Source of the DNA: a virus
Lineage: Duplodnaviria > Heunggongvirae > Uroviricota > Caudoviricetes
DNA: 46,331 nucleotides
Virus record (IMG/VR): IMGVR_UViG_2877948078_000002
Strand: one strand, 5' to 3'
Shown here piece by piece: positions 6,463 through 46,331 of the stretch. The notes below the pieces were generated by a model. It was not told the DNA's origin, did no database searches, and worked only from the letters and a program-made list of their open reading frames with translations. Made by a program: the position numbers and the translations under genes. The first letter of the stretch is position 1; every line of letters begins with the position of its first letter.

Positions 6463-6475
6463 ATAGGAGGCTTTG

Positions 6476-10422: not shown

Positions 10423-10439
10423 CTTACATCCATCTCCAT

Positions 10440-11318: not shown

Positions 11319-11384
11319 ACTCATCTACAATCTTGCGCGGGGCTGAACTCCCGCTGAGTAACACCGTGCCACCGGAGAAAACCG

Positions 11385-11663
11385 ATGGCACGCAACGTAA
11401 AATATTACAATTCTGATAATTCGCCCGTTCTTGCCTGCACGCACGAGCGGTATTCTCACGCATTCAAGTCTGAATGGTTCCAACACCCTCCATGCACTGA
11501 AGAGCAGGCTGAATGGATAATTCAGTGTTACCGCAGGCGCGGATACGAGGTTAAGAAAGCCCTTAGTCTCGACTACCGTCACTGGATAATCTCAGTCAGA
11601 TTGCCTTACTCCGAACGCCCACCACGTGCGTCCCGCACTTTCCAGCAACGGATCTGGAGGTAA
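11385..11663 (+). CDS. Hypothetical protein (92 aa)
   Basis: ORF ending 2 nt before the ydfU GTG start; no recognisable motif. Confidence 0.4.
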   Translation: MARNVKYYNSDNSPVLACTHERYSHAFKSEWFQHPPCTEEQAEWIIQCYRRRGYEVKKALSLDYRHWIISVRLPYSERPPRASRTFQQRIWR

Positions 11664-11664
11664 C

Positions 11665-12714: not shown

Positions 12715-12727
12715 GTGGAGAACGAGC

Positions 12728-13480: not shown

Positions 13481-13511
13481 ATGATTTTTGCTGAAGATGG
13501 CGACATGATGT

Positions 13512-13540
13512 TTGCATTTTTCAAAAAATATGGATAAAAT
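13512..13540 (+). promoter_or_regulatory. Candidate late promoter pR' (TTGCAT, 17 nt spacer, TAAAAT)
   Basis: Hexamers at 13512..13517 and 13535..13540, 30-60 nt downstream of Q; by inspection only. Confidence 0.45.
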
Positions 13541-13585
13541 TTTTTCAACGATGGGCTTTGTATACCCGACGTTAAGAAAAAGTAG

Positions 13586-13612
13586 AAAACCCGCTGATGA
13601 GCGGGTTTTGTG
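13586..13612 (+). terminator. Intrinsic terminator downstream of pR' (tR'-like, Q-antitermination target)
   Basis: Hairpin ACCCGC-TGATGA-GCGGGT followed by TTTTG. Confidence 0.55.
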
Positions 13613-13901
13613 CTTTAAATGGGGCAATGGTAATGTTGAATCTCATCCCGGGACTCATGTCTGTTAACTTATTATTTAGCTGGTGACTTGGTTATTTGCC
13701 TGATGTTTAAAATGTTTTCTTCCAGTACAATGTCCCTAAACACAATGAGTCTGCTTATTATATTATTAGCAGAGCTATTACGGCCAAAGTACAGCATAAG
13801 CTTTTAAAGCCAATCAACCAGTCATCAAGACAGACGGGGTTATTCATAAAAACTCTCCATGTGTGATCCGATGGGGCCTGAAATTAAAGCTTTAATATAG
13901 C

Positions 13902-14114
13902 TCATGAAAGGTAAACATTGGCAGCTGAAGGGCCACGCAGACCATTTATCCGGCAAAATTCCACGCGTAATCCGGTGGTAATTTCTTCTGCATCGCGGAG
14001 ATTGAGCGCTGAAACATGAAGCTGGACATCGATACGACCATCGGATGGGGTGATAAGACCCTTGCCGCTTTTGCCGTCAAAGGTTTTGACAATTCCTGTC
14101 ATTTTACGGGACAA
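13902..14114 (-). CDS. cspF: Cold-shock protein family member CspF-like
   Basis: 70-aa product [38 protein letters not shown]…; CspF/CspH subfamily, adjacent to cspB as in Qin. Confidence 0.8.
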
Positions 14115-14414
14115 AAAAATTCCTTAATACTGATAACTTGGCGCACTATACACACGTTCCTGAAGAAAGCTATAGTTTTTTGATGGGGTTGAAGATGGCT
14201 GGATGTCTAAAATAAACATTGCTTCATATGTTCAACTATGCGTTAATGATTGCGTCGGTTTGAAGAACAGACGATATACGAAGTAGTTTACTAAAGCAGT
14301 TCTCATTTCAGGTGTTATTCACTTATTCCTTCTTTGAGTCTCTCCAATTAAGTACGAAGTCGTTTCTGTTATGCAAACCATTTATGCCGAAAGGCTCAAG
14401 TTAAGGAATGTAGA

Positions 14415-14630
14415 ATGTCAAATAAAATGACTGGTTTAGTAAAATGGTTTAACGCTGATAAAGGTTTCGGCTTTATTTCTCCTGTTGATGGTAGTAAAGA
14501 TGTGTTTGTGCATTTTTCTGCGATTCAGAATGATAATTATCGAACCTTATTTGAAGGTCAAAAGGTTACCTTCTCTATAGAGAGTGGTGCTAAAGGTCCT
14601 GCAGCAGCAAATGTCATCATTACTGATTAA
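14415..14630 (+). CDS. cspB: Cold-shock protein CspB
   Basis: 71-aa product [71 protein letters not shown] with RNP1/RNP2 motifs; long 5' leader upstream. Confidence 0.9.
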
Positions 14631-14911
14631 AATTCATCGCTCGTCTGTATACGATAACGAAGAAGGCTGATGCCTGAGTAGAGATACGGACAGAGTAGTG
14701 AATATTGGATTTCTTTAATAAAAATTAAGGAGGTCCAATACATGAAACAATGGCCAGCATATTTGGCAAAATCTTAATCAGGAAAAGTATGCTAACCATT
14801 GTGGTGAAGTGCAGGTTTGCTGCATGAATAGTTTTACAGCAGAAGCTAACTGCTGGCATGGCAAAACAAAGTGCGTAAGTGGATGACTCCCACAAAAAGC
14901 ACCACAATCTC

Positions 14912-14937
14912 AAACCCGCTCAGGCGGGTTTTTTATT
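14912..14937 (+). terminator. Intrinsic terminator
   Basis: Hairpin AAACCCGC-TCAG-GCGGGTTT followed by TTTTTAT. Confidence 0.5.
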
Positions 14938-14993
14938 ATCTGCTTTAAATATATTATTAAAATATAAAAAATACTTGTTACTAATAAAATCAA

Positions 14994-15215
14994 TCAGGCT
15001 ACAGCTTTAAGATTTGTCTGGAATACTTTGTTGCAATGAGGGCAGATCAAAAGGGCACCTTTTTGTACTCTTGAAAAACTGTGTTCTGACTCTTGGGTGC
15101 AGTTTGGGCAGGAACATTTAACGAGATAATTACGGCGTGATTTTGAGTCTTTACGTTCTGACATAGGCTTTTCCTGTATAAATGGCCGTATACAGTACAC
15201 TAAATATGAAAACAT
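14994..15215 (-). CDS. Hypothetical small zinc-ribbon protein
   Basis: 73-aa ORF with CxxC…CxxC (CPNC…CPHC) motif; start may be the internal Met (MSERKDS…). Confidence 0.45.
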   Translation of the reverse strand: MFSYLVYCIRPFIQEKPMSERKDSKSRRNYLVKCSCPNCTQESEHSFSRVQKGALLICPHCNKVFQTNLKAVA

Positions 15216-15383
15216 TTCTCGTATTATTATTTTATATATGACTTTCTTTCAAAATAATTACTCACATTTTTAATGTGTATGTTTCTTTAGCGCCGTTGAG
15301 AACAGCGTGTGCTGTCAAAACTACCCCGTAGACTCCGATCTTTTCAAACATATTGCACCATCCGTGTACATCGGGGTGAGGAT

Positions 15384-15599
15384 ATGAAATCAATGGATAA
15401 GTTAACAACAGGTGTTGCCTATGGCACATCGGCGGGTAATGCTGGTTTCTGGGCATTGCAGTTACTCGATAAAGTAACTCCGTCACAGTGGGCTGCAATC
15501 GGTGTGCTGGGTAGCCTGGTTTTTGGCCTGCTGACGTATCTGACAAATCTTTATTTCAAGATTAAAGAAGACAGGCGTAAGGCTGCGAGAGGAGAGTAA
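15384..15599 (+). CDS. essQ: Holin (class II-like, EssQ-like)
   Basis: 71-aa product [71 protein letters not shown] with transmembrane segments and a charged C-terminus; immediately upstream of the endolysin. Confidence 0.8.
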
Positions 15600-15603
15600 T
15601 CCA

Positions 15604-15911
15604 ATGACTCAAGACTATGAACTGGTTGTGAAAGGAGTCCGTAATTTTGAGAATAAAGTTACGGTAACTGTAGCCTTACAGGACAAAGAACGCTTTGACG
15701 GTGAAATTTTTGACCTGGATGTCGCCATGGACCGTGTTGAAGGAGCTGCGCTGGAGTTTTATGAGGCAGCAGCCAGAAGGAGCGTCCGGCAAGTCTTCCT
15801 GGAAGTAGCAGAAAAATTGTCAGAAAAAGTTGAGTCTTATCTGCAGCATCAGTACTCCTTTAAGATTGAAAATCCTGCCAATAAGCACGAGCGTCCTCAT
15901 CATAAATATAT

Positions 15912-15915
<4 letters not shown>
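15604..15915 (+). CDS. ydfR: YdfR-like protein (103 aa) between holin and endolysin
   Basis: 103-aa ORF; position and length match YdfR of Qin as recalled; stop overlaps the endolysin start (ATGA). Confidence 0.65.
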
Positions 15916-16939
<1,024 letters not shown>

Positions 16940-17302
16940 GGTAATATTAAATCGGAACATTTACATCGCGGAATGTAAAATTTAAATAAAAAGGACTCTT
17001 CCATGAGCCAAAATTCCTGAAATCTTAAGGGTAAGATAAAAGGTCTTAATCAGAATGACACGTTATTATTAATAAATAAAGCTATTCTTTCATTGCTGTG
17101 TTTTTCTTTACAAAAGTAATCCTTGCTATGGGTGGTTAATCATGCGTTAATGGTGTTCTGGTTTGTTACAAATTTATCTGAAGCAGTCATTGTTATAATT
17201 TTATTATTTGTACCTCTTGAGATTTCCTTGTTGGTTTTTCTCTCTGATATTTTTTTTCGGACCATTCTGCCCAAGGGCTAATTTCTTCAAAAGGTAATAA
17301 TT

Positions 17303-17515
17303 ATGTCTAACAAAATGACTGGTTTAGTGAAATGGTTTAACCCTGAAAAAGGTTTTGGTTTCATCACGCCGAAAGATGGCAGCAAAGATGTGTTTGTCCA
17401 TTTCTCAGCAATTCAGAGCAACGATTTCAAAACATTAACTGAGAATCAGGAAGTTGAATTTGGTATTGAGAACGGACCTAAAGGTCCTGCCGCTGTTCAT
17501 GTAGTGGCGCTTTGA
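17303..17515 (+). CDS. cspI: Cold-shock protein CspI
   Basis: 70-aa product [70 protein letters not shown]; long AT-rich 5' leader. Confidence 0.9.
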
Positions 17516-17719
17516 GGTAGACAATATTACAAACCATATTCACTTTAGATGCCCGTGTTGTCATGGTTCCCAGTATAGAACATCATCTTTTGATGTTTCT
17601 GACATGAATCCTTTCGGGGCAAAATGTATCTTTTGTAAATCAATGATGATTACATTTGATAATATTTCACAATACTTAAATGCCAGCCGTCTGTCGTTGG
17701 ATTTAAAAAAGTGAAAATG

Positions 17720-17745
17720 AAGGCTCCTTCGGGAGCTTTTTTGCT
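17720..17745 (+). terminator. Intrinsic terminator
   Basis: Hairpin GGCTCC-TTCG-GGAGCT followed by TTTTTTG. Confidence 0.55.
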
Positions 17746-17785
17746 TGGTATCTATTCGATGGATACTCACATACTACGGTAACAT

Positions 17786-18017
17786 CATGAAAAAAATCAT
17801 AGTTTTTTTTAACTCTGAACCAGCAGTGGTAGTGCCAGCGATGACTGGAGTTAACACCATCATGCGTGAATATCCAAATGGCGAAAAAACACACCTTACT
17901 GTAATGGCCGCAGGGTTTCCATCTCTGACCGGAGATCATAAAGTCATTTATGTAGCCGCGGATCGACATGTTACTTCAGAAGAAATTCTGGAAGCAGCAA
18001 TAAGGCTCTTGAGTTGA
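17786..18017 (+). CDS. Hypothetical small protein (76 aa)
   Basis: Internal ATG of ORF 17745..18017 (MKKIIVFFNSEP…); no recognisable motif. Confidence 0.4.
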
Positions 18018-18188
18018 TTTGATGCTATTGTATTGATAATTCAGGAAAATTCTCTCTGTCTGTTTGTGTAAAATTTAGACTATCGTATGTTGATTATTGC
18101 GATGTTTCATCTTATCTTTTACACGTTTGCACCATATAATCGACTTACTGTGTAACTGGAAAGTCATAACAGACTAAAAGAGGAAATG

Positions 18189-18362
18189 ATGAATATTGAA
18201 AACTTAAAAACAAAAGCAGAAGCAGATATTTCTGAATATATAACAAAAAAAATTATTGAACTTAAGAAAAAGACCGGGAAAGAAGTTACCAGTATTCAGT
18301 TTACCGCACGGGAAAAAATGACGGGTCTTGAAAGCTATGATGTCAAGATTAATTTAATCTGA
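18189..18362 (+). CDS. gnsB: GnsB-like small protein (57 aa)
   Basis: Not in the ORF track (under 60 aa); translation MNIENLKTKAEADISEYITKKIIELKKKTGKEVTSIQFTAREKMTGLESYDVKINLI resembles GnsA/GnsB as recalled; AGGAA Shine-Dalgarno upstream. Confidence 0.65.
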   Translation: MNIENLKTKAEADISEYITKKIIELKKKTGKEVTSIQFTAREKMTGLESYDVKINLI

Positions 18363-18513
18363 TGTATTCAATAATAAAATTTATCCATAAACCTCGTTTT
18401 TACGGGGTTTTGTTATATTTGAATGGTTCCGAATATCTAAATCACAATTGTTGATGGTTTTTATTAAACCAATGCAGTCCGGCTCAGGAGTGAGAGAAGC
18501 CGGACGTTATGGT

Positions 18514-28802: not shown

Positions 28803-28814
28803 CAGGTGGAGAAC

Positions 28815-29204
28815 ATGATGTTTCTGAAACAGGGCACGTTTAATTATGAAAAGCAGTCCGTGGTGCTCAGTGAGCTGTCCGGGCTGCAGAGAATTGAATA
28901 TCTGGCGTTTGTTCAGCAGCGAACGGCAAAGTTTGATGCCGAAGAGGGAGAACTGCCGGAGGCTGAACGACAGATTGCTTTTCTGCGGATGGGGATGGAT
29001 ATCAATGCCTGGCTGGTTTCCCGCTCACTGTGGAATGCGGAACAGTCTCAGGATGTTGAGACGCTTTGCGCATCCGTTATTACAACATGGTCGTATGATG
29101 CCCTGGGAGCGGGGGCGGAGATGGTTCTGTCGCTGAGCGGTATGGGAGCCATTGAGAATGCCGGGGATTTGGAGCATGAGGTGCTGACGCCGGAAAAGTC
29201 CTGA
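28815..29204 (+). CDS. Tail assembly chaperone (lambda gpG-like)
   Basis: About 130-aa ORF directly upstream of the tape-measure gene, followed by a -1 frame ORF (gpT-like). Confidence 0.75.
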   Translation: MMFLKQGTFNYEKQSVVLSELSGLQRIEYLAFVQQRTAKFDAEEGELPEAERQIAFLRMGMDINAWLVSRSLWNAEQSQDVETLCASVITTWSYDALGAGAEMVLSLSGMGAIENAGDLEHEVLTPEKS

Positions 29205-29542
29205 CGCGGGAAATGCAGTTTGTCATGCGGCTTGCCCGGGAGTTCAGGCGGGCAGACTGGCGGCGGATGCTGTCGGAAATGTCGGCCACTGAGCTTGGTG
29301 AGTGGGGCGATTATTTCCGGATGCAGAGCTTCAGTGATGTGTGGATGGATGCGCAGTTTGCCTCGCTGAAGGCATTGATCGTGAGAATGGTGTCCGGTAG
29401 CAGTGATGCTGCGGTGGCTGATTTCAGCCTTTTACCGGAAGAGAACGGGATACCGGAGCGAACGGACGAAGAACTGATGCATCTTGGGGAAGGTATTTCC
29501 GGAGGTGTGCGTTATGGACCAGATAGCCAACCTGGTCATTGA
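29180..29542 (+). CDS. gpT-like segment, probably expressed as a G-T fusion by -1 programmed frameshift
   Basis: -1 frame is open from 29180 and overlaps the end of G; candidate slip region CCGGAAAAG at 29190..29198 resembles lambda GGGAAAG; ends overlapping the tape-measure start. Confidence 0.55.
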   Translation, partial: GADAGKVLTREMQFVMRLAREFRRADWRRMLSEMSATELGEWGDYFRMQSFSDVWMDAQFASLKALIVRMVSGSSDAAVADFSLLPEENGIPERTDEELMHLGEGISGGVRYGPDSQPGH

Positions 29543-32500
29543 TTTGGGGATTGATGCGGCAGAGTTTAAAAATGAAATTCCCCGTATCAAAAACCTTCTG
29601 AATGGTGCAGCCAGCGATGCAGAACGGTCTTCTGCCCGTATGCAGCGTTTTATGGAGCGTCAGACTCAGGCCGCCCGGCAGACAACGCAGGCGGCTTCTT
29701 CGGCTGCAACAGCCGCATCCGTCCATGCGCAGACGGTGGAGAAGAACGCACAGGCTCATGAACGCATGGCCCGCGAGGTGGAGAAAACCCGCCAGCGCAT
29801 GGAGGCACTGAGCCAGAAAATGCGTGAGGAACAGGCGCAGGCCATGGCTCTGGCGGAGGCTCAGGATAAAGCGGCTGCTGCGTTTTATCGTCAGATTGAC
29901 AGTGTGAAACAGGCCAGTGCGGGGCTGCAGGAATTACAGCGTATTCAGCAGCAGGTCCGACAGGCCAGAAACAGTGGCGGGATTGGTCAGCAGGATTATC
30001 TGGCGCTGATTTCTGAGGTTACGGCGAAAACCCGTGTTCTTACACAGGCTGAGGAAGAGGCTACCCGACAGAAAGTGGCGTTTATCCGTCAGCTTAAAGA
30101 GCAGGCAACCCGCCAGAATCTTTCATCTTCTGAGTTGCTTCGTGCCAGGGCAGCCCAGCTGGGGGTAAGCAGTGCTGCAGAAGTGTATATCCGCAAAATG
30201 GAGCAGGCAGGAAAAGCCACGCATTCGCTGGGTCTGAAAAGTGCAGCAGCCCGCCAGGAGATAGGCGTTCTGATAGGTGAACTGGCCCGTGGCAATTTAG
30301 GAGCGCTGAGGGGAACCGGGATAACGCTGGCTAACCGTGCCGGATGGATAGACACACTGATGTCACCGAAAGGCATGATGCTGGGCGGGGTTATTGGCGG
30401 TATTGCCGCGGCCGTCTATGGTCTGGGTAAAGCCTGGTATGACGGTCAGAAGGAGGGGGAAGAATTTAACCGCCAGCTGTCACTGACGGGGCATTATGCC
30501 GGAGTCACTGCCGGGCAGCTGTGGACGCTCAGTCGTGCTATTTCCGGGAATGGTATCACGCAACATGCTGCAGCCGGTGCGCTGGCTCAGGTGGTGGGGA
30601 GTGGTGCATTTCGTGGAAACGATATCGGTATGGTGGCGAGAGCTGCCGCACAGATGGAGCGATCGGTTGGCCAGTCGGTCAGCGATACCATAAATCAGTT
30701 TAAGCGGCTGAAGGATGATCCTGTAAATGCCGCGAAGGCTCTGGACAATGAGCTGCATTTTCTTACTGCCACTCAGCTTGAGCAGATACGCGTCCTTGGG
30801 GATCAGGGGCGGTCCAGTGATGCGGCACGGATAGCCATGTCTGCACTGGCAGAGGAAACCGGTCGGCGTACTGCGGATATTGATAATAACCTCAATGCGC
30901 TGGGCAGTACGCTGAAGTATCTGTCTGATTTATGGAGTCGTTTCTGGGATGCGGCCATGAATATTGGTCGTGAAGACTCGCTGGATGAACAGATTGCCGC
31001 TTTACAGGAGAAAGTGTCGCGGGCGAAAAGACTCCCCTGGACGGCATCATCTTCTCAGGTTGAATACGATCAGCAGCGTCTTAACGATCTTCAGGAGAAA
31101 AAACGCCAGAAGGATTTGCAGGATGCAAAAGAGCAGGCAGAGCGGAATTATCAGGAGCAACAGAAACGCCGTAATGCTGAAAATGCTGCACTGAACCGGA
31201 TGAATGAAACGGAAGCAGCACGACATCAGCGTGAAATTGCGCGTATTAATGCCATGCAGTACGCCGATCAGGCTGTCAGGGATGCGGCGATACAACGTGA
31301 AAATGAACGTTACGAGAAAGCCCTGGCATCCGGTAAGAAAAAAACACGCGAAACCCGTAATGATGAGGCCACCCGGTTATTGCTGCAGTACAGTCAGCAA
31401 CAGGCACAGGTGGAAGGACAGATTGCTGCTGCCAGACAGTCAGCAGGCATTGCCACGGAAAGGATGACAGAAGCGCATAAACAGCTTCTGGCTCTGCAGC
31501 AGCGCATCAGCGACCTGGACGGGAAAAAACTGACGACAGATGAAAAGAGTGTACTGGCCCGTAAAGATGAACTGATTCAGGCACTGACGCTGCTGGATGT
31601 AAAACAGCAGGAGCTTCAGAAACAGACGGCACTCAACGAGCTGAAGAAAAAAACAATTCAGCTGACCAGTCAACTGGCTGAAGAAGAGCGCGCTCAGCGT
31701 CAGCAACATGACCTGGATATCGCCACGGTGGGTATGGGTGATCAGCAGCAGCAGCGATATCAGGTACAACTGAGTCTTCGCCAGAAATACCAGCAACAGC
31801 TGGAGCAGTTGAGGCGGGATAGTGAGCAGAAAGGGACATATAACACGGATGACTACAGAAAGGCCGAGCAGGCGCTGACGGAGAGCCTGAACCGACAACT
31901 GAATGAGAATCGCCGTTACTGGCAACAGCTTGAAGTTGTGCAGGGTAACTGGAAAAACGGAGTCCTGCGTGCATTTCAGGATTTTACCGTGGATGCAGAT
32001 AATACGGCAGGAACAGCAGAACAGGTGTTCTCGTCAGCCTTCAGCAACATGGGAAATGGCCTGGCAACTTTTGTCACTACCGGCAAACTCAATTTCAAAT
32101 CCTTCACCTCTTCTGTGCTGTCAGATATGGCGAAAATCCTGGCGCAGGCAACCATGATGAAATCGATAAAAGGGATTGGCAGTGTACTGGGATTTGATCT
32201 CAGCAGCCTTTCCCTGAATGCCAATGGGGGGATTTATCAGTCTGCTGATTTGAGTCGTTACAGTGGCACGGTGGTTAACCGTCCGACGTTTTTTGCTTTT
32301 GCAAAAGGCGCGGGTGTGATGGGGGAAGCTGGACCTGAAGCCATTCTGCCACTGCGTCGTGATGCTGACGGTAAGCTGGGGGTTGTGGCGGATATTGGTG
32401 GTTCAGGTATGGCGATGTTTGCCCCGCAGTACAACATAGAGATCAATAACGATGGCACGAACGGGCAGATAGGTCCGGCTGCCCTGAAGGTGGTTTATGA

Positions 32501-32579
32501 CCTCGGGAAAAAAGCAGCAGCGGACTTTATGCAACAGCAGGCCCGTGATGGTGGTCGGTTAAGTGGAGCATATCGGTAA
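29514..32579 (+). CDS. Tail tape-measure protein (lambda gpH-like)
   Basis: About 1020-aa ORF, alpha-helical Q/A/E/R-rich composition; GGAGG Shine-Dalgarno 8 nt upstream. Confidence 0.9.
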   Translation: MDQIANLVIDLGIDAAEFKNEIPRIKNLLNGAASDAERSSARMQRFMERQTQAARQTTQAASSAATAASVHAQTVEKNAQAHERMAREVEKTRQRMEALSQKMREEQAQAMALAEAQDKAAAAFYRQIDSVKQASAGLQELQRIQQQVRQARNSGGIGQQDYLALISEVTAKTRVLTQAEEEATRQKVAFIRQLKEQATRQNLSSSELLRARAAQLGVSSAAEVYIRKMEQAGKATHSLGLKSAAARQEIGVLIGELARGNLGALRGTGITLANRAGWIDTLMSPKGMMLGGVIGGIAAAVYGLGKAWYDGQKEGEEFNRQLSLTGHYAGVTAGQLWTLSRAISGNGITQHAAAGALAQVVGSGAFRGNDIGMVARAAAQMERSVGQSVSDTINQFKRLKDDPVNAAKALDNELHFLTATQLEQIRVLGDQGRSSDAARIAMSALAEETGRRTADIDNNLNALGSTLKYLSDLWSRFWDAAMNIGREDSLDEQIAALQEKVSRAKRLPWTASSSQVEYDQQRLNDLQEKKRQKDLQDAKEQAERNYQEQQKRRNAENAALNRMNETEAARHQREIARINAMQYADQAVRDAAIQRENERYEKALASGKKKTRETRNDEATRLLLQYSQQQAQVEGQIAAARQSAGIATERMTEAHKQLLALQQRISDLDGKKLTTDEKSVLARKDELIQALTLLDVKQQELQKQTALNELKKKTIQLTSQLAEEERAQRQQHDLDIATVGMGDQQQQRYQVQLSLRQKYQQQLEQLRRDSEQKGTYNTDDYRKAEQALTESLNRQLNENRRYWQQLEVVQGNWKNGVLRAFQDFTVDADNTAGTAEQVFSSAFSNMGNGLATFVTTGKLNFKSFTSSVLSDMAKILAQATMMKSIKGIGSVLGFDLSSLSLNANGGIYQSADLSRYSGTVVNRPTFFAFAKGAGVMGEAGPEAILPLRRDADGKLGVVADIGGSGMAMFAPQYNIEINNDGTNGQIGPAALKVVYDLGKKAAADFMQQQARDGGRLSGAYR

Positions 32580-32908
32580 TGGAGACGTTTCACTGGAAAG
32601 TGCGCCCGGATATGAATGTGGTATCAGAGCCGAAAGTGGTGACAGTGAAGCTGGGCGATGGTTATGAACAGCGTCGTGTGGCGGGACTGAATAACCAGTT
32701 GTCGACTTACAGCGTGACGATACGTGTTCGTAAATGTGAACACCCATCTTTAAAAGCCTTTCTGGAACGGCACGGTGGCGTCCGCGCATTTCAGTGGACG
32801 CCACCTTATGACTGGAAGCCGATCAGGGTGGTTTGTCGTAAATGGTCGGCGAGCGTAGGGGCGCTGTGGGTAACCATAACGGCAGATTTTGAACAGGTCG
32901 TGGCATAG
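32579..32908 (+). CDS. Minor tail protein (lambda gpM-like)
   Basis: 109 aa, same length as lambda gpM; start overlaps tape-measure stop (TAATG). Confidence 0.85.
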   Translation: METFHWKVRPDMNVVSEPKVVTVKLGDGYEQRRVAGLNNQLSTYSVTIRVRKCEHPSLKAFLERHGGVRAFQWTPPYDWKPIRVVCRKWSASVGALWVTITADFEQVVA

Positions 32909-32917
32909 GAGGCTCTG

Positions 32918-33616
32918 ATGCAGGATATTCCACAGGAAACACATCATGAGACGACACGCCTCACTCAGTCAGCCCTGGTGGTGCTCTGGGAAATCGATCT
33001 GACAGAGGTCGGTGGAGAACGTTATTTTTTCTGTAATGAGCAGAACGAAAAAGGTGAGCCGGTCACCTGGCAGGGGCGACAGTATCAGCCGTATCCCATT
33101 CAGGGGAGTGGTTTTGAACTGAATGGCAAAGGCACCAGTACGCGCCCCACGCTGACGGTTTCTAACCTGTACGGTATGGTCACCGGGATGGCGGAAGATC
33201 TGCAGAGTCTGGTCGGCGGAACGGTGGTCCGGCGTAAGGTTTACGCCCGTTTTCTGGATGCGGTGAACTTCGTCAACGGAAACAGTGACGCCGATCCGGA
33301 GCAGGAGGTGATCAGCCGCTGGCGCATCGAGCAGTGCAGCGAACTGAGCGCGGTCAGTGCCTCTTTTGTACTGTCCACGCCGACGGAAACGGACGGCGCT
33401 GTTTTTCCGGGACGTATCATGCTGGCCAACACCTGCACCTGGACCTATCGCGGTGATGAGTGCGGTTATCACGGTCCGGCAGTCGCGGATGAATATGATC
33501 AGCCGACGTCCGATATCACGAAGGATAAATGCAGCAAATGCCTGAGCGGTTGTAAGTTCCGCAATAACGTCGGCAACTTTGGCGGCTTCCTTTCCATTAA
33601 CAAACTTTCGCAGTAA
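32918..33616 (+). CDS. Minor tail protein (lambda gpL-like)
   Basis: 232 aa, same length as lambda gpL; cysteine cluster CTWTYRGDECGY…CSKCLSGC. Confidence 0.85.
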   Translation: MQDIPQETHHETTRLTQSALVVLWEIDLTEVGGERYFFCNEQNEKGEPVTWQGRQYQPYPIQGSGFELNGKGTSTRPTLTVSNLYGMVTGMAEDLQSLVGGTVVRRKVYARFLDAVNFVNGNSDADPEQEVISRWRIEQCSELSAVSASFVLSTPTETDGAVFPGRIMLANTCTWTYRGDECGYHGPAVADEYDQPTSDITKDKCSKCLSGCKFRNNVGNFGGFLSINKLSQ

Positions 33617-33621
33617 ATACC

Positions 33622-34365
33622 ATGACACAGACAGAATCAGCGATTCTGGCGCACGCCCGGCGATGTGCGCCAGCGGAGTCGTGCGGCTTCGTGGTAAGTA
33701 CGCCGGAGGGGGAAAGATATTTCCCCTGCGTGAATATCTCCGGTGAGCCGGAGGCGTATTTCCGTATGTCGCCGGAAGACTGGCTGCAGGCAGAAATGCA
33801 GGGTGAGATTATGGCGCTGGTCCACAGCCACCCCGGTGGTCTGCCCTGGCTGAGTGAGGCCGACCGGCGGCTGCAGGTGCAGAGTGATTTGCCGTGGTGG
33901 CTGGTCTGCCGGGGGACGATTCATAAGTTCCGCTGTGTGCCGCATCTCACCGGGCGGCGCTTTGAGCACGGGGTGACGGACTGTTACACGCTGTTCCGGG
34001 ATGCTTATCATCTGGCGGGGATTGAGATGCCGGATTTTCATCGCGGGGATGACTGGTGGCGTCACGGTCAGAATCTCTATCTGGATAATCTGGAGGCCAC
34101 AGGGCTGTATCAGGTGCCGTTGTCAGCGGCGCAGCCGGGCGATGTGCTGCTGTGCTGTTTTGGTTCATCGGTGCCGAATCATGCCGCCATTTACTGTGGT
34201 GACGGCGAGCTGCTGCACCATATTCCTGAACAACTGAGCAAACGAGAGAGGTATACCGACAAATGGCAGCGACGCACACACTCCCTCTGGCGTCACCGGG
34301 CATGGCACGCATCTGCCTTTACGGGGATTTACAACGATTTGGCCGCCGCATCGACCTTCGTGTGA
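33622..34365 (+). CDS. Tail assembly protein (lambda gpK-like, JAB/MPN plus NlpC/P60 domains)
   Basis: 247-aa ORF; JAMM-like motif ALVHSHPGG and a downstream Cys/His peptidase-like region. Confidence 0.85.
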   Translation: MTQTESAILAHARRCAPAESCGFVVSTPEGERYFPCVNISGEPEAYFRMSPEDWLQAEMQGEIMALVHSHPGGLPWLSEADRRLQVQSDLPWWLVCRGTIHKFRCVPHLTGRRFEHGVTDCYTLFRDAYHLAGIEMPDFHRGDDWWRHGQNLYLDNLEATGLYQVPLSAAQPGDVLLCCFGSSVPNHAAIYCGDGELLHHIPEQLSKRERYTDKWQRRTHSLWRHRAWHASAFTGIYNDLAAASTFV

Positions 34366-34910
34366 AAACGGGGGCTGAAGCCATCCGGGCGCTGGCCACA
34401 CAGCTTCCGTCGTTTCGCCAGAAACTGAATGAGGGCTGGTATCAGGTGCGCATTTCCGGGCGTGATGCAGGCGAAAATGAATTATCTGCCCGTCTTAATG
34501 AACCGCTGGCAAATGGTGCCGTGATCCACGTCGTTCCGCGTCTGGCGGGTGCCAAAAGTGGCGGTGTGTTTCAGGCGGTGCTGGGTGCGGCGCTGATTGC
34601 GGTGGCATGGTGGAACCCTGTTGGCTGGCTGGGGGCCGCGGCTGTATCGGGTATGTATGCAGCAGGGGCCAGTATGATCCTGGGTGGTGTGGCGCAGATG
34701 CTGGCACCGAAAGCCAGGACGCCCACGGCAGCCAGTACAGATAACGGCAAACAGAACACGTATTTCTCGTCACTGGATAACATGGTTGCCCAGGGCAATG
34801 TTCTGCCTGTTCTGTACGGGGAAATGCGCGTGGGATCACGTGTGGTTTCTCAGGAGATCAGCACGGCAGACGAAGGGGATGGTGGTCAGGTTGTGGTGAT
34901 TGGTCGCTGA
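34302..34910 (+). CDS. Tail assembly protein (lambda gpI-like)
   Basis: About 200-aa product overlapping the end of K; hydrophobic Gly/Ala-rich central segment; start codon choice uncertain (34263 or 34302). Confidence 0.75.
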   Translation: MARICLYGDLQRFGRRIDLRVKTGAEAIRALATQLPSFRQKLNEGWYQVRISGRDAGENELSARLNEPLANGAVIHVVPRLAGAKSGGVFQAVLGAALIAVAWWNPVGWLGAAAVSGMYAAGASMILGGVAQMLAPKARTPTAASTDNGKQNTYFSSLDNMVAQGNVLPVLYGEMRVGSRVVSQEISTADEGDGGQVVVIGR

Positions 34911-34928
34911 TGCAAAACATTTTATGTG

Positions 34929-34951
34929 AAACCGCCTGCGGGCGGTTTTGT
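34929..34951 (+). terminator. Hairpin with T-run between I and J (possible attenuator/terminator)
   Basis: AAACCGCC-TGCG-GGCGGTTTTG. Confidence 0.35.
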
Positions 34952-34967
34952 CGTTTATGGAGCGTGA

Positions 34968-38369
<3,402 letters not shown>

Positions 38370-38387
38370 ATTTTATAACCCAGAACG

Positions 38388-38412
38388 GGCGTCAGAAATG
38401 ACGCCTTTTTTA
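38388..38412 (+). terminator. Intrinsic terminator after J
   Basis: Hairpin GGCGTCA-GAAA-TGACGCC followed by TTTTTTATT. Confidence 0.6.
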
Positions 38413-38435
38413 TTGCAGAAAAGCGAGAGGTAATT

Positions 38436-39035
38436 ATGCGTAAACTTTATGCCGCCATTTTGTCCGCAGCCATTTGTCTGGCCGTATCCGGTGCGCCTGC
38501 ATGGGCGTCTGAACATCAGTCCACGCTGAGCGCGGGGTATCTTCATGCCCGGACGAACGTTCCCGGCAGTGATGATCTGAACGGGATTAACGTGAAATAC
38601 CGTTATGAGTTTACGGACACACTGGGGATGGTGACGTCGTTCAGCTATGCAGGAGACAAGAATCGCCAGATTACCCGTTACAGCGATACCCGCTGGCATG
38701 AAGATTCCGTTCGTAACCGCTGGTTCAGCGTAATGGCGGGGCCGTCTGTGCGCGTGAATGAATGGTTCAGCGCGTATGCGATGGCGGGTGTGGCTTACAG
38801 CCGTGTGTCGACTTTCTCCGGGGATTATCTCCGCGTAACTGACAACAAGGGGAAAAAGCACGATGTGCTGACCGGAAGTGATGACGGTCGCCACAGCAAC
38901 ACGTCTCTGGCGTGGGGAGCTGGCGTGCAGTTTAACCCGACCGAATCCGTGGCCATTGATGTCGCTTATGAAGGCTCCGGCAGTGGTGACTGGCGCACTG
39001 ACGGGTTCATCGTGGGTGTTGGTTATAAATTCTGA
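38436..39035 (+). CDS. lom: Lom-like outer-membrane beta-barrel protein (Ail/Lom/PagC family)
   Basis: 199-aa product with signal peptide ([24 protein letters not shown]) and C-terminal aromatic residue (…GVGYKF); position after J as in lambda. Confidence 0.85.
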
Positions 39036-39061
39036 TTAGCCAGGTAACACAGTGTTATGAC

Positions 39062-39088
39062 AGCCCGCCGGTTCAGGCGGGCTTTTTT
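39062..39088 (+). terminator. Intrinsic terminator after lom
   Basis: Hairpin AGCCCGCC-GGTTCAG-GCGGGCT followed by TTTTTTG. Confidence 0.65.
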
Positions 39089-39099
39089 GTGGGGTGAAT

Positions 39100-42000
39100 A
39101 TGGCAGTAAAAATTTCAGGTGTACTGAAAGACGGCACAGGAAAACCGGTACAGAACTGCACAATCCAGCTGAAAGCAAAACGTAACAGCACCACGGTGGT
39201 GGTGAACACGCTGGCCTCAGAAAATCCGGATGAAGCCGGGCGTTACAGCATGGACGTTGAGTACGGTCAGTACAGCGTTATTCTGTTGGTGGAAGGATTC
39301 CCGCCGTCACATGCCGGGACCATCACCGTGTATGAAGATTCCCGACCCGGTACGCTGAATGATTTTCTCGGTGCCATGACGGAGGATGATGCCCGTCCGG
39401 AGGCACTGCGCCGTTTTGAGCTGATGGTGGAAGAGGTGGCGCGTAACGCGTCCGCGGTGGCACAGAACACGGCAGCCGCGAAGAAGTCAGCCAGTGATGC
39501 CGGCACATCTGCCAGTGAGGCGGCAACCCATGCGACTGATGCTGCAGGCTCAGCGCGTGCAGCCAGCACGTCAGCCGGACAGGCCGCGACGTCGGCTCAG
39601 GAGGCGTCTTCCAGCGCAGGAACAGCATCAACAAAGGCCACAGAAGCATCAAAAAGTGCTGCCGCTGCAGAGTCCTCAAAAAGCGCGGCGGCCACCAGTG
39701 CCGGTGCCGCGAAAACGTCAGAAACGAATGCTGCAGCGTCACAAAAATCAGCAGCCACTTCTGCATCCACTGCGACGACGAAAGCGTCAGAAGCCGCCAC
39801 TTCAGCCAGAGATGCGGCGGCCTCCAAAGAGGCGGCAAAATCATCAGAAACGAACGCCTCCACAAGCGCCAGCAGTGCAGCCTCCTCGGCAACGGCGGCA
39901 GGAAATTCCGTGAAGGCGGCAAAAACGTCCGAGACGAATGCTAAGTCTTCTGAAACGGCAGCGGAACAGAGCGCCTCAGCTGCGGCAGACTCTGAGACAG
40001 CAGCTGCATCATCGGCCCGTGAGGCGTCCATTAAGGCAGAGGAGGCAGCAGTCAGTGCCACCGCCGCCGGAAAATCGGCAGAAAGCGCCGCATCATCCGC
40101 TTCAACAGCCACAACGAAGGCTGGCGAAGCCACTGAACAGGCCAGCGCAGCAGCGAGGTCTGCTTCCGCAGCGAAGACATCCGAAACGAACGCGAAAGCG
40201 TCGGAAACCAGCGCAGAATCCTCAAAAACGGCTGCCGCATCGTCCGCCAGTTCGGCGGCGTCATCGGCATCATCTGCGTCTGCTTCAAAAGATGAGGCGA
40301 CCAGACAGGCGTCAGCAGCGAAGGGCAGCGCCACGACAGCATCCACGAAGGCGACAGAGGCAGCTGGCAGTGCGACGGCGGCAGCACAGAGCAAAAGTAC
40401 GGCGGAATCCGCGGCAACGCGCGCCGAGACAGCAGCTAAACGGGCAGAGGATATTGCATCCGCCGTGGCGCTTGAGGATGCAAGTACGACGAAAAAGGGG
40501 ATAGTACAGCTCAGCAGTGCGACCAACAGTACGTCTGAAACGCTGGCGGCAACGCCAAAGGCAGTAAAATCAGCCTATGACAATGCAGAGAAACGTCTGC
40601 AGAAAGACCAGAACGGCGCTGATATACCCGATAAGGGACGCTTCCTGAACAACATTAACGCGGTCAGTAAAACAGACTTTGCTGATAAGCGTGGTATGCG
40701 TTATGTGCGGGTTAACGCTCCTGCAGGTGCAACATCTGGAAAATATTACCCTGTTGTTGTTATGCGTTCTGCTGGCTCAGTAAGCGAACTGGCATCAAGG
40801 GTCATTATCACCACGGCACCGCGAACCGCAGGCGATCCGATGAATAACTGCGAGTTTAACGGATTTGTTATGCCTGGTGGCTGGACTGACAGGGGGCGTT
40901 ATGCTTATGGAATGTTCTGGCAATATCAAAACAATGAACGAGCCATCCACTCAATAATGATGAGTAATAAGGGCGATGATTTGCGCTCTGTGTTCTATGT
41001 TGATGGCGCTGCTTTCCCTGTTTTTGCGTTTATCGAAGATGGCCTGTCAATATCCGCACCTGGTGCTGATCTCGTTGTTAATGATACGACCTATAAGTTT
41101 GGGGCAACAAATCCAGCGACTGAATGTATCGCGGCGGACGTTATCCTTGATTTTAAGAGTGGGCGTGGTTTTTATGAGTCTCATTCGTTAATCGTTAACG
41201 ATAACTTGTCGTGCAAAAAACTTTTTGCCACAGACGAAATTGTAGCGCGTGGTGGTAATCAGATTCGAATGATAGGTGGGGAGTATGGTGCATTATGGCG
41301 TAATGATGGCGCTAAAACTTACCTGCTGCTTACCAATCAAGGTGATGTTTATGGTGGCTGGAATACATTAAGACCGTTTGCTATTGATAACGCAACCGGC
41401 GAACTGGTTATTGGAACCAAACTGTCCGCAAGTCTGAACGGTAATGCATTAACAGCAACAAAGCTGCAAACGCCAAGACTGGTTTCTGGTGTTGAGTTTG
41501 ATGGTTCCAAAGATATTACTTTAACCGCCGCGCATGTGGCTGCTTTTGCCAGAAGGGCAACGGATACATATGCCGATGCGGATGGTGGCGTTCCCTGGAA
41601 TGCCGAATCAGGCGCTTACAATGTCACCCGCTCTGGCAACAGCTATATTCTGGTTAACTTCTATACCGGAGTCGGAAGTTGCCGGACATTGCAGATGAAG
41701 GCGCATTACAGAAATGGAGGTCTGTTCTACCGTTCCTCAAGAGATGGCTATGGTTTTGAAGAAGACTGGGCAGAAGTTTATACCTCGAAAAATCTTCCAC
41801 CAGAAAGCTACCCAGTCGGTGCACCAATCCCGTGGCCATCAGATACCGTTCCGTCTGGTTATGCCCTGATGCAGGGGCAGACTTTTGACAAATCTGCTTA
41901 CCCGAAACTTGCAGCCGCTTATCCGTCAGGCGTGATCCCTGATATGCGTGGCTGGACGATTAAGGGCAAACCTGCCAGTGGTCGAGCCGTATTATCTCAG

Positions 42001-42450
42001 GAACAGGACGGCATTAAATCGCACACCCACAGCGCCAGCGCATCCAGTACGGATTTGGGGACGAAAACCACATCGTCGTTTGATTACGGCACTAAATCCA
42101 CGAATAACACCGGGGCGCATACCCATAGTGTTAGCGGTACGGCTGCTTCAGCCGGTGCACATACCCATTCGATAACATTTGTTTCAGGTGGCACCAAAGG
42201 TGCTCCGGGAAGTGGATCACCTGATTATTCTAAATACAGTGTTAACACTTCTTCTGCAGGCGCTCATACGCACTCTGTATCGGGTACTGCTGCAAGCGCA
42301 GGTGCACACGCACATACTGTAGGTATTGGTGCGCATACGCACTCGGTTGCGATTGGTTCACATGGACACACCATCACCGTTAACGCTGCTGGTAACGCGG
42401 AAAACACCGTCAAAAACATCGCATTTAACTATATTGTGAGGCTTGCATAA
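39100..42450 (+). CDS. stf: Side tail fibre protein (Stf) with long Ala/Ser/Thr-rich repeat region and C-terminal His-rich repeats
   Basis: About 1116-aa product beginning [27 protein letters not shown]…; low-complexity repeats ([17 protein letters not shown]…) across about 39480..40500; C-terminal GAHTHS repeats; stop overlaps the tfa start. Confidence 0.85.
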
Positions 42451-43025
42451 TGGCATTCAGAATGAGTGAACAACCACGGACCATAAAAATTTATAATCTG
42501 CTGGCCGGAACTAATGAATTTATTGGTGAAGGTGATGCATATATTCCGCCTCATACAGGTCTGCCAGCAAACAGTACCGATATTGCACCGCCAGATATTC
42601 CGGCTGGCTTCGTGGCTGTTTTCAACAGTGATGAGTCATCGTGGCATCTCGTTGAAGATCATCGGGGTAAAACGGTTTATGACGTGGCTTCCGGCGACGC
42701 GTTATTTATTTCTGAACTCGGTCCGTTACCGGAAAATGTTACCTGGTTATCGCCGGAAGGGGAGTTTCAGAAGTGGAACGGCACAGCCTGGGTGAAGGAT
42801 ACGGAAGCAGAAAAACTGTTCCGGATCCGGGAGGCGGAAGAAACAAAAAACAACCTGATGCAGGTAGCCAGTGAGCATATTGCGCCGCTTCAGGATGCTG
42901 CAGATCTGGAAATTGCAACGGAGGAAGAAATCTCGTTGCTGGAAGCATGGAAAAAGTATCGGGTATTGCTGAACCGTGTTGATACGTCAACTGCACAGGA
43001 TATTGAATGGCCAGCACTGCCGTAG
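42450..43025 (+). CDS. tfa: Tail fibre assembly protein (Tfa)
   Basis: 191-aa ORF immediately after stf (TAATG overlap); size and position of lambdoid Tfa. Confidence 0.85.
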
Positions 43026-43122
43026 GGTAAAACATATAAATTCTATAATTAGATGTATCTTTCCATTTACGGCAAGGAAGGGGGCTTGGAAGACGTAAAG
43101 CATCTCACACCGAGATTATTTT

Positions 43123-43713
43123 TTATATGTCAGGTGTCTGAAGTTTTGCTTTGGCTCTTAAAATGGTTTGCCGCGAGGTTTTGAATTCCCGGGCAATGGC
43201 ACTTATACTTACACTTGACTTAATTCGTTCGAATACCACCTGTTTCTGTTCTTCATTTAACACAGGTGGTCGACCAAAACGTTTCCCTGCGCCGCGGGCT
43301 CTTACTATCCCGGAATGAGTGCGTTCAAGTAAAAGGTCTCGTTCAAATTCAGCAACTGCTGAAATTACTTGCATCATCATTTTTCCTGTTGGACTGGTCA
43401 AGTCAATGCCCCCCAATGCTAAGCAATGCACTCTGATACCTGTTTCGGTCAGTTGTTCCACTGTTTTCCTGATATCCATTGCATTACAACCAAGGCGATC
43501 CAGTTTTGTCACAATCAATTGATCACCACATTTCAGGCGAGCAAGCAACCGGTTAAAACTAGGACGCTCACTGGTTGCTGCTGAGCCGCTAATGTGTTCT
43601 TCGATTATTTGCTGAGGTTTGATTTTAAAACCTGCACTTTCGATTTCCCGGCGTTGATTTTCGGTGGTCTGATCCAGCGTTGATATCCGACAGTAAGCAA
43701 AAATTCGAGACAT
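43123..43713 (-). CDS. pin: Serine recombinase DNA invertase (Pin/Gin/Hin family)
   Basis: 196-aa product [20 protein letters not shown]… with catalytic Ser in the N-terminal motif and a C-terminal HTH; convergent with tfa. Confidence 0.9.
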
Positions 43714-44029
43714 AGTGAGACTCTATACGAAATTGGTGTTCATATCATAATGCATCTCAGAAAATAATTTTGATTATTTTTGTGCATATTTGTATGTACA
43801 CGTTCGAAAATAAACGAATGCGTATGCAACCCCGTAATTTTGGTGAGACCCAAAATCGATTTTGTGAAAAATGGCTTTAACTCGGTTTGTTTTTCGAGTT
43901 CTGGGCGGACTCAAGGAAGAAGAATAGTGTTTCGTGTTATTTTAACCAGATTTTAAGTTGTTTGGTCGTGGAAAAGTGGAGCAAAATGTTGTTAAAGTGG
44001 AAAAATGATAAAAAAGTAAGTTTATTATA

Positions 44030-44263
44030 TTACATTTTACCATTTAAATTTTGGTTGTCTTTAAGAACTGATATCGCTGTTTGTAATAATTCTTTGTTAT
44101 CCAGCCATGATTTTTTCTTTATGTTTCCTTCAATGTAATCAAGCAATGTTCTGGTATTGATAGGTCTTCCCTGTTTTGCTACTTCCACTACAGCATCCCC
44201 TAGGATAATTCTTACTTCAGGAAGCTGCGCAGGGAACCACTTTAGGGTGTCTTTTGATTTCAT
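44030..44263 (-). CDS. ydfK: YdfK-like small protein (77 aa)
   Basis: Internal ATG with AAGGAA Shine-Dalgarno gives 77 aa MKSKDTLKWFPAQLPEVRIILGDAVVEVAKQGRPINTRTLLDYIEG…, matching YdfK/YnaE as recalled. Confidence 0.6.
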   Translation of the reverse strand: MKSKDTLKWFPAQLPEVRIILGDAVVEVAKQGRPINTRTLLDYIEGNIKKKSWLDNKELLQTAISVLKDNQNLNGKM

Positions 44264-45047
44264 GAAGATATTCCTTAAAATATTATTGATTTTCATTGCG
44301 ATATTGTATGTCTGATTCAGGATATGTTGACTTATACATCGGTTTTGTCTGGGTTATTGGATATGCCAATCCCTAATTTTATTAGGGCATGACTAAAAAT
44401 GCTGAATATGATAAGGAGAGAAGTGATTATCAGTATGCTGTTCATATAGCCTCGAATTAGTAATGTGTTATATATGATATAGTTGACAATTTTTATCTTG
44501 GGTGTTCTTAAAGTTCGTAGATAAACATTGTCGTTTCAGGTATACAGGAATGCTAACAGGTGGCAGCAAAAATCAGGCGGTTATGGCGCAAGCTGAAGCG
44601 GCAACTGCAAACTATCTTATGCAGAGACTCTACACGGATTGGGTTTAAAAGTATACATAGATAACAGTTTTTATCTGAAAAAGAAAAATATCAAGGTGAT
44701 ATAGCCTATATGCCTTTGATGCGGAGGAATGAATGTGATGGGAGTGATGTATCTGAATAGTTGAAAAACCGCAGACACGCCTTATGCAAGAACGTGCTGC
44801 GGTTGGCTGGTAAATTTTTCGATAGTGTGAGTATTGAATGATTTCCAGCCGTTCTTGATTTTACGCATAAATCCATGAAAAAACTACTTATCTGTTGGGG
44901 AGTTTTTTTGGGGCATATATGGGACAGAAATAGGCCCCAGATAGACACTGAGATCGAACTTAGGATGCTTTTTAAAAAATGCAACTATCTGAAAAAACCT
45001 AGAAAACGCCAAGGAAACCACAGGATGGGAAAAAACACCTGTGAATT

Positions 45048-46331
45048 ATGGATTTCCAGTTATATTCGCTCGGCGCAGCGTTGGTGTTTCATGAAATATT
45101 TTTTCCTGAATCATCAACGGCAATGGCGTTAATTCTGGCAATGGGAACCTACGGTGCAGGTTATGTCGCGCGTATTGTCGGAGCATTTATTTTCGGCAAA
45201 ATGGGCGACAGAATAGGGCGTAAAAAAGTGCTCTTTATTACCATCACCATGATGGGGATCTGTACCACCTTAATTGGTGTGTTACCGACCTATGCACAGA
45301 TTGGTGTTTTTGCCCCCATCTTGCTGGTGACGCTGCGTATTATTCAGGGGTTGGGTGCAGGTGCGGAAATTTCCGGTGCCGGTACGATGCTGGCGGAATA
45401 TGCACCAAAAGGTAAGCGCGGAATTATCTCCTCATTTGTAGCTATGGGAACTAACTGCGGAACCTTGAGCGCAACGGCAATCTGGGCCTTTATGTTCTTC
45501 ATTCTCAGTAAAGAGGAACTGCTGGCGTGGGGATGGCGTATACCGTTCCTGGCGAGCGTTGTCGTGATGGTCTTTGCTATCTGGTTACGTATGAATCTGA
45601 AAGAAAGCCCGGTCTTTGAGAAGGTTAATGACAGCAACCAACCCACAGCAAAACCTGCACCTGCTGGTAGCATGTTCCAGAGCAAATCCTTCTGGCTGGC
45701 AACAGGGCTGCGTTTTGGTCAGGCGGGTAACTCCGGGTTAATTCAGACTTTCCTTGCAGGCTATTTAGTGCAGACGTTATTGTTTAACAAAGCAATTCCA
45801 ACAGATGCATTGATGATTAGTTCGATTCTCGGCTTTATGACCATTCCGTTCCTTGGTTGGTTATCCGATAAAATTGGTCGCCGGATCCCGTATATTATTA
45901 TGAATACCTCCGCGATTGTGCTGGCATGGCCAATGCTTTCTATCATTGTAGATAAAAGCTATGCCCCGAGCACCATTATGGTTGCACTGATTGTGATTCA
46001 TAACTGTGCGGTGCTGGGATTATTTGCTCTGGAAAACATTACCATGGCAGAAATGTTCGGCTGTAAAAACCGCTTTACCCGGATGGCTATTTCTAAAGAA
46101 ATTGGTGGTCTTATCGCTTCCGGTTTTGGTCCTATCCTGGCGGGTATTTTCTGCACCATGACGGAATCCTGGTATCCGATCGCCATTATGATCATGGCAT
46201 ATTCAGTAATTGGTTTAATCTCTGCGCTGAAAATGCCAGAGGTGAAAGACCGTGATTTAAGTGCGCTGGAAGACGCTGCGGAAGATCAACCGCGTGTTGT
46301 AAGAGCTGCGCAACCTTCCAGAAGTCTGTAA
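45048..46331 (+). CDS. ydfJ: MFS transporter YdfJ (metabolite:proton symporter family), probably N-terminally truncated by the prophage insertion
   Basis: 427-aa ORF with multiple transmembrane segments and MFS signature GKMGDRIGRKK; begins inside the conserved first transmembrane region with a stop codon directly upstream of the ATG. Confidence 0.8.
   Translation: MDFQLYSLGAALVFHEIFFPESSTAMALILAMGTYGAGYVARIVGAFIFGKMGDRIGRKKVLFITITMMGICTTLIGVLPTYAQIGVFAPILLVTLRIIQGLGAGAEISGAGTMLAEYAPKGKRGIISSFVAMGTNCGTLSATAIWAFMFFILSKEELLAWGWRIPFLASVVVMVFAIWLRMNLKESPVFEKVNDSNQPTAKPAPAGSMFQSKSFWLATGLRFGQAGNSGLIQTFLAGYLVQTLLFNKAIPTDALMISSILGFMTIPFLGWLSDKIGRRIPYIIMNTSAIVLAWPMLSIIVDKSYAPSTIMVALIVIHNCAVLGLFALENITMAEMFGCKNRFTRMAISKEIGGLIASGFGPILAGIFCTMTESWYPIAIMIMAYSVIGLISALKMPEVKDRDLSALEDAAEDQPRVVRAAQPSRSL

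Follow-up and report, generated by a model that had tools for sequence, protein, structure and literature searches.

Near the right-hand end of the viral record IMGVR_UViG_2877948078_000002 (IMG/VR; Caudoviricetes; 46,331 nucleotides, the whole of which is called the window below), an open reading frame for the MFS transporter YdfJ begins abruptly behind a stretch of AT-rich DNA. The locus raises the question of whether this is the border between an integrated prophage and the chromosome of its host, at which base that border lies, and whether the prophage behind it is a complete phage or a relic of the kind known from Escherichia coli K-12 as Qin. The region 44300..45060 is, with a high degree of confidence, the right end and attR of a lambda-like, Qin-type temperate prophage integrated in ydfJ. 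The features that carry this conclusion are the following.

1..45056, no strand: full-length Qin-type lambdoid prophage, about 45,074 bp with one copy of the core; the 18 nt next to the attL core fall outside the window
20..1300, minus strand: tyrosine integrase of the IntQ type, 426 residues, intact here and interrupted by IS2 in K-12
1335..1586, minus strand: excisionase, 83 residues (Pfam DUF1233, putative excisionase, PF06806; 1.6e-31)
45042..45044, plus strand: in-frame TGA supplied by the phage arm, closing the ydfJ frame upstream two codons before the ATG
45046..45056, no strand: attR copy of the att core TTATGGATTTC, identical in attB, attL, attR and attP; the K-12 Qin feature ends here
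45048..46331, plus strand: ydfJ', codons 29-455 of the MHS-family MFS transporter YdfJ, without the promoter and the first 28 codons

The truncated transporter gene and the att core

The open reading frame at 45048..46331 (plus strand) encodes 427 residues with a clear MFS transporter signature (Pfam MFS_1, 2.6e-37) and corresponds to residues 29-455 of uninterrupted YdfJ, which in the allele of strain 13TMH22 translates into 455 residues. The 1284 nt of ydfJ' agree with the intact allele at every position (100% identity, 0 nt differences). The start ATG of ydfJ' is the internal Met29, in the motif LEFMDFQLY; the stretch from Met1 to Phe28, ahead of MDFQLY, is absent, and the 28 lost residues reach into LEFMDF, a conserved motif with which the first membrane segment opens. 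An earlier note on this DNA had described a transporter frame that starts inside the first transmembrane region with a stop just upstream, and a transporter deprived of its N-terminus; both descriptions hold, with Met29 standing behind the TGA at 45042-45044 and 28 codons missing relative to the 455-residue allele. Compared with the K-12 remnant, 13 sites differ, all of them synonymous, leaving 0 amino-acid differences. PGAP labels ydfJ' a pseudogene with a missing N-terminus, whereas K-12 RefSeq gives b1543, of identical length, as a coding sequence ('putative transporter YdfJ'). The remnant is free of signs of decay though truncated and promoterless.

The core was derived by aligning the uninterrupted allele (attB), the attL of related genomes, the attR of the window and the attP of two free phages. 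The exact shared core is the 11 bp TTATGGATTTC, which spans ydfJ codons 28-31 and includes the ATG at 45048. Alignment with an uninterrupted ydfJ allele, which the earlier note had proposed for pinpointing the core, placed it at 45046..45056; the interval 44300..45047 suggested there for attR therefore names the right region but sets its upper limit too low, since the core straddles 45047.

On the left, the first base of the window lies 19 nt past the stop codon of the minus-strand integrase gene. In genomes that share the left end of the window at 99.8% identity, rspB precedes the integrase gene, and the stretch between them opens with ATGACAATAGAA..., reads MTIEKHERSTKDLVKAAVSGWLGTALEFMDF and then enters phage sequence. 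The expected left flank of window position 1 is rspB, a spacer of about 57 bp, ATGACAATAGAA...GAATTTATGGATTTC and then AAGAGTCATACGTGTTAA. Where attL was read in relatives (genomes L002 and L003, and K-12), it consists of a 5' stub of ydfJ and a second copy of the core beside int; the direct repeat sought upstream of int is thus present in relatives, the flank of the source genome itself lying outside the window.

The two halves of the junction can be rejoined in both directions. A hybrid attB query, made by joining the left flank of related genomes to the window from 45057 onward, was searched in complete E. coli genomes (5426 in the survey set used throughout) and gave a single ungapped alignment of 987 nt in 2007 of them (37%), with identity of up to 99.7%; the annotation at these empty sites places a full-length ydfJ after rspB. 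Joined to the right part of attR, the left part of attL makes up the empty site with no base gained or lost. The predicted attP (the right arm of the window, the core, the 18 nt AAGAGTCATACGTGTTAA and the window from position 1 onward) is contiguous in the records of two free phages, mEp460_ev081 (99.4%) and Tritos (98.6%), over 1761 nt, and in both it sits between ydfK and int. The junction is not a chance pattern: a 600-nt attR segment centred on the core recurs in 2922 of the genomes surveyed (about 54%), and the attL junction was found in 2674. A second sequence resembling the core region was also noted: ACCTGTGCATTATTGTTTTCA, at window 90..110 in the 3' part of int, matches ACCTGTGAATTATGGATTTCA at 18 of 21 positions and stands 127 bp from the core in attP, and may be either a chance match or a secondary core-like site.

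The recombination genes agree with this arrangement. The integrase combines an N-terminal arm-binding domain (Pfam Arm-DNA-bind_2, PF12167; 1.6e-23) with a catalytic domain (Phage_integrase, PF00589; 1.3e-17), and is identical over its full length at 98.8-99.1% of residues to the integrases of mEp460_ev081 and of the ydfJ prophage of strain NRG 857C; its gene shares 99.4% of nucleotides with K-12 intQ over 1179 nt. The excisionase gene adjoins int and its product is 100% identical to that of both relatives. Arm-binding and catalytic domains, an adjacent xis and an exact conversion of attP and attB into attL and attR are all features of the lambda type. On this model, the tyrosine integrase carried out recombination between attP and the attB site of ydfJ, at the 11-bp core TTATGGATTTC, and so split the gene in two; the attL piece would be a stub of 36 ydfJ codons beside int, just outside the window (named ynfP in K-12), and the attR piece is a promoterless 427-codon remnant starting at the internal Met29.

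The spacer and the arms of attP

The DNA between ydfK and ydfJ', together with the left end of the window, contains the following features.

44030..44263, minus strand: ydfK (cold shock protein YdfK), a phage accessory gene, 100% identical in relatives; its longest open reading frame extends to 44296
44332..44445, minus strand: ynfT, a gene of 37 codons that matches Pfam YnaM (6.5e-28) and that both the K-12 annotation and PGAP include
44764..44804, minus strand (the int-sense strand): hairpin followed by a U run, resembling an intrinsic terminator (fold -20.7 kcal/mol, z -3.78)
44807..45045, no strand: integrase-specific P arm of attP, about 240 bp, not found in Rac and specific to phages of the ydfJ site
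44909..44917, plus strand, and 44931..44939, minus strand: candidate arm-type repeats of the TGGGGCAWR family in the P arm
1..110, no strand: P' arm of attP (probable extent), which runs into the 3' end of int
from 3 nt before the window to position 10, minus strand: TATCAAATAGTTA, a perfect match to the integration host factor (IHF) consensus, with 0.05 expected by shuffling
42..50 and 53..61: candidate arm-type repeats TGGGGCAWR in the P' arm

From the end of the ydfK open reading frame at 44296 (annotated start 44263) to the ATG of ydfJ' there are 751 bp, with a GC content of 37.7% as against 46.9% for ydfJ and 48.6% for the whole window. The earlier note had taken this spacer for about 750 bp of AT-rich non-coding DNA; the length and the AT-richness stand, whereas the description as wholly non-coding does not, as the spacer contains ynfT. 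It is phage DNA, because the reconstructed attP is contiguous in two free phages. Much of it belongs to a longer block, window 38846..44806, that matches the right end of the K-12 prophage Rac (lomR'-stfR-tfaR-pinR-ynaE-ynaM) at 96.4% identity, terminator hairpin included. The homology with Rac ends about 240 bp short of the core, however, and Rac relies on another integrase and another site, annotated beside the ttcC pseudogene.

In lambda, attP lies directly downstream of int, an arm-binding Int works with a separate Xis, the IHF site is on the P' side and a terminator lies past attP. The window resembles lambda in its attP/int/xis layout, in the IHF consensus on the P' side of the core and in a hairpin beyond attP on the int-sense strand, and differs from it in its core and host site, the site used here lying inside a coding sequence, so that a gene is disrupted. 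The hairpin was first spotted by eye, having been overlooked by a scan for promoter and terminator consensus sequences; upon RNA folding, none of 200 shuffled sequences was equally stable. It lies about 240 nt beyond the core and marks the end of the Rac homology (44806). In the free phage, it would come to stand downstream of int across attP, in the position of lambda tI/sib, and integration would part it from int. The same consensus scan found no plus-strand sigma-70-like site in 44300..45047, and promoter-like sites were not enriched in this interval (seven found, 5.5 +/- 2 expected).

The segment 44807..45045 would be the P arm that carries the arm-type sites of Int together with sites for Xis and IHF. 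The reconstituted attP contains four copies of TGGGGCAWR, two per arm, a number that chance could produce after multiple testing. The functions proposed for these repeats, the IHF site and the terminator hairpin are putative, and so is a sib-like retroregulation of int through the hairpin.

A scan of the whole window with Rfam at gathering thresholds gave no match within 44300..45060. A permissive scan returned a sub-threshold CssrB match and a spurious microRNA match, neither of which establishes an RNA gene in the spacer. The former, to a Shigella chromosomal small RNA, covers 44664..44801 on the plus strand (25.3 bits against a gathering threshold of 76; E 0.012) and terminates at the hairpin.

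A full-length relative of Qin

The annotated 'cryptic prophage Qin' of K-12 (NC_000913.3, 1632277..1652745) has both of its ends exactly at core positions, and the 40-nt flanks of the core in the K-12 attL and attR match those of the window and its relatives bar one base per side. Integration into ydfJ as in K-12 Qin, as the earlier note had supposed, is confirmed by the matching core, flanks and feature boundary. Besides the integration site and core, the two prophages share the 427-codon ydfJ remnant (b1543), the 36-codon N-terminal stub (ynfP) and the right-end genes pinQ, ydfK and ynfT. At the nucleotide level, 97-99% identity is seen in int, the 3' part of exo, ydfD, dicB, DicF and part of the immunity region, in the block from hokD to ydfO, and from the 3' end of the tail fibre module through ydfJ; one further segment of the immunity region matches at only 88%. 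The Qin markers dicB, DicF, ydfD, hokD, cspB/F/I, pinQ and ydfK, together with an IntQ-type integrase, are all present in the window. Qin, however, measures 20.5 kb as against about 45 kb for the window copy, and lacks almost the whole virion module (window 19002..41809), with the terminase at one end and the N-terminal part of the side tail fibre at the other. It further differs in the IS2 element that interrupts intQ/ydfE, in the presence of relBE, in part of its immunity region and in its accessory genes. The window copy can be called an 'ancestor-like' form of Qin in a loose sense only, given its mosaicism, the differences in immunity and accessory genes and a side tail fibre that is Rac-like.

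The closest studied relative is Tritos, prophage 3 of the adherent-invasive E. coli strain LF82 (OV696610), and NRG 857C, a strain close to LF82, carries a ydfJ prophage; both show the layout rspB, int ... ynfT, ydfJ' at the same site, and Tritos is 95.7-99.2% identical in nucleotides over window 1..37927. Comparison of about 50 genes with Tritos and the NRG 857C prophage showed that the whole series of genes from int through gpJ is of full length, with no stop codon in any of them. Protein identity to the NRG 857C prophage is mostly 90-100%, the lowest value (80%) being that of a gpZ-like tail protein; with NRG 857C/Tritos as the reference, identity reaches 100% for the repressor, Cro, replication genes, holin, lysozyme, Rz and TerS and 98% for Q. 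Tritos differs in carrying three other genes where the window has the StfR/TfaR type of Rac, and its Exo and gpJ are about 90% identical. The free infant-gut phage mEp460_ev081 (LR597641) has a nearly identical attP, int and xis and 92-100% identical head and tail, Tfa, Pin and YdfK proteins, and the genes that it has in common with the window are likewise full length and stop-free. By contrast, its repressor (52%), Q (40%) and TerS (42%) are divergent, it carries RusA and further genes that the window lacks, and the accessory gene that separates its replication genes from hok is another one. In its side tail fibre module, the window follows the Rac/ev081 type and not that of Tritos. Lysogeny, replication, lysis, packaging, head and tail genes are all present and uninterrupted in the window, and the intact structural gene set that the earlier note had claimed is borne out in silico by both comparisons.

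Given this gene complement, the window copy would probably still be able to excise with Int and Xis and to make virions. Tritos provides the nearest precedent, with low-level spontaneous induction at about 3x10^6 genomes/mL, siphovirus particles and plaques on MG1655 (Misson et al., PMC9928086); it was not among the prophages reported as ciprofloxacin-induced (PMC9928086), and mitomycin C may therefore raise induction of the window copy little.

Several points weigh against the interpretation as a whole. Intact open reading frames are no proof of activity, as missense changes and defects in cos or operators are invisible to such a comparison. The gpJ and Exo proteins share no more than about 90% of residues with their counterparts in functional relatives, and the window and Tritos differ in their side tail fibre modules. 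None of the 5426 complete genomes holds an identical prophage, the best matches being mosaic at 98-99% identity. The candidate arm sites and the single IHF match (p about 0.05) are weakly supported, and the attL of the source genome lies outside the window, so that its repeat has been read in L002, L003 and K-12 only.

One alternative is that a complete-looking prophage has been grounded by lesions that escape comparison of open reading frames, its junction being a fixed scar as in K-12. Degradation is the usual state at this site, at least 80% of the 25-kb central part (window 4001-29000) being found in 389 genomes as against the 2922 with the junction; mutations in intQ are frequent (PMC6379469), and Tritos itself gave a low titre and a plaque once only (PMC9928086). 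Against this stand an Int and an Xis that are 99% and 100% identical to those of excising phages, the absence of any stop codon or truncation among the compared genes, and the identity to NRG 857C/Tritos of the regulatory, replication, lysis and TerS genes listed above, with Q at 98%. We regard a grounded prophage as possible, though rather doubtful.

A second alternative concerns the transporter rather than the phage, and supposes that the 427-codon remnant works, being translated from Met29 on transcripts reading out of the prophage, such that YdfJ would have been remodelled and not inactivated. K-12 RefSeq lists a coding sequence of the same length (b1543), and decay is absent (0 nt differences from the intact allele, and 13 from K-12 that are all synonymous). 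Recent integration would explain the identity to the intact allele equally well, however, and the PGAP pseudogene flag, the loss of 28 residues up to LEFMDF and the consensus scan without a plus-strand sigma-70-like site in 44300..45047 all count against a working remnant, which appears unlikely.

Less likely still is that the prophage reversibly switches the expression of ydfJ, and of ydfI downstream of it ('active lysogeny'), a highly speculative reading that comes to mind because the insertion lies inside a coding sequence, excision restores ydfJ exactly and the remnant is undecayed. In the uninterrupted locus ydfJ and ydfI directly follow rspAB, and a literature search on the rspAB/gulonate context of ydfJ found nothing. 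Excision of the LF82 prophages is said to restore no open reading frame and to modify none (PMC9928086); this statement appears to overlook ydfJ in the case of Tritos, the same junction being present in NRG 857C (L008, 954..2237 and 45523..48001), where excision of the Tritos-type prophage should, judging from the sequence, lengthen ydfJ from 427 to 455 codons.

Finally, loss of the ydfJ N-terminus by deletion or illegitimate recombination beside the prophage, instead of site-specific integration, has next to nothing in its favour beyond the fact that the window alone shows one side of the junction, since the missing 28 codons are intact at the other prophage end in every relative examined, there are two copies of the core, the empty site is restored exactly by joining attL (left part) to attR (right part) and free phages carry the reciprocal attP.

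Other genes, precedents and significance

The right end of the window comprises the 3' part of lom, a side tail fibre of 1118 residues, tfa, pin, ydfK and ynfT. This and the remaining genes and RNAs of note include the following, the RNA features all matching Rfam at gathering level.

43123..43713, minus strand: pinQ
8935..10422, plus strand: 'P-loop ATPase, Sll1717 family', 495 residues, between the replication genes and hokD
4775..4826, minus strand: DicF small RNA
10526..10697, plus strand: sok antitoxin RNA beside hokD
14254..14646 and 17157..17542, plus strand: cspA-type 5' leaders ahead of cspB and cspI
42793..42991, plus strand: 'IS009' inside the tail fibre assembly gene

A search for a Pin-invertible segment found no inverted repeats of at least 14 nt in 41500..43800. 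With no such repeats flanking it, pinQ would have no invertible segment beside it, in agreement with the report that PinQ acts in trans on the P segment of e14 (PMC12529663). The 495-residue P-loop protein has no Pfam match and only a weak PADLOC match (PDC-M28C, 4e-5). In related prophages, the same slot holds KwaB-like, AAA ATPase or DUF4209 genes, and in mEp460_ev081 it holds a gene for 449 residues on the opposite strand; this suggests that the slot between the replication genes and hokD is a variable accessory or defence slot.

Prophages at ydfJ have been described before. Ramisetty and Sudhakari (PMC6379469, legend to Fig. 4E) reported that Qin, by inserting itself at the 5' end of ydfJ, deprives the gene of its promoter and of 28 N-terminal codons, and that prophages at this site range from 11 to 97 kb across 189 strains (PMC6379469). 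Nakamura et al. (PMC8112680, legend to S7 Fig) obtained attP of a ydfJ prophage by polymerase chain reaction and gave an att sequence of 18-19 bp, which is compatible with the 11-bp exact core and near-identical flanks found here. There are thus published precedents for the junction, the truncation by 28 codons, the att sequence and a full-length relative that is live (PMC6379469, PMC8112680, PMC9928086). Of the genomes surveyed, 682 carry 80% or more of the tail module contiguously with ydfJ.

As a discovery, the junction therefore has little value, being ordinary and present both in the literature and in standard annotation. Its use lies in the annotation of this record: the limits of the prophage are fixed, with window position 1 lying 18 nt inside attL and the core at 45046..45056, and the 'non-coding' spacer is recognized as phage DNA with ynfT and the P arm. 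The window copy is a candidate active phage, and not a remnant like Qin, which bears on induction, transduction and phage-host work with the source strain.

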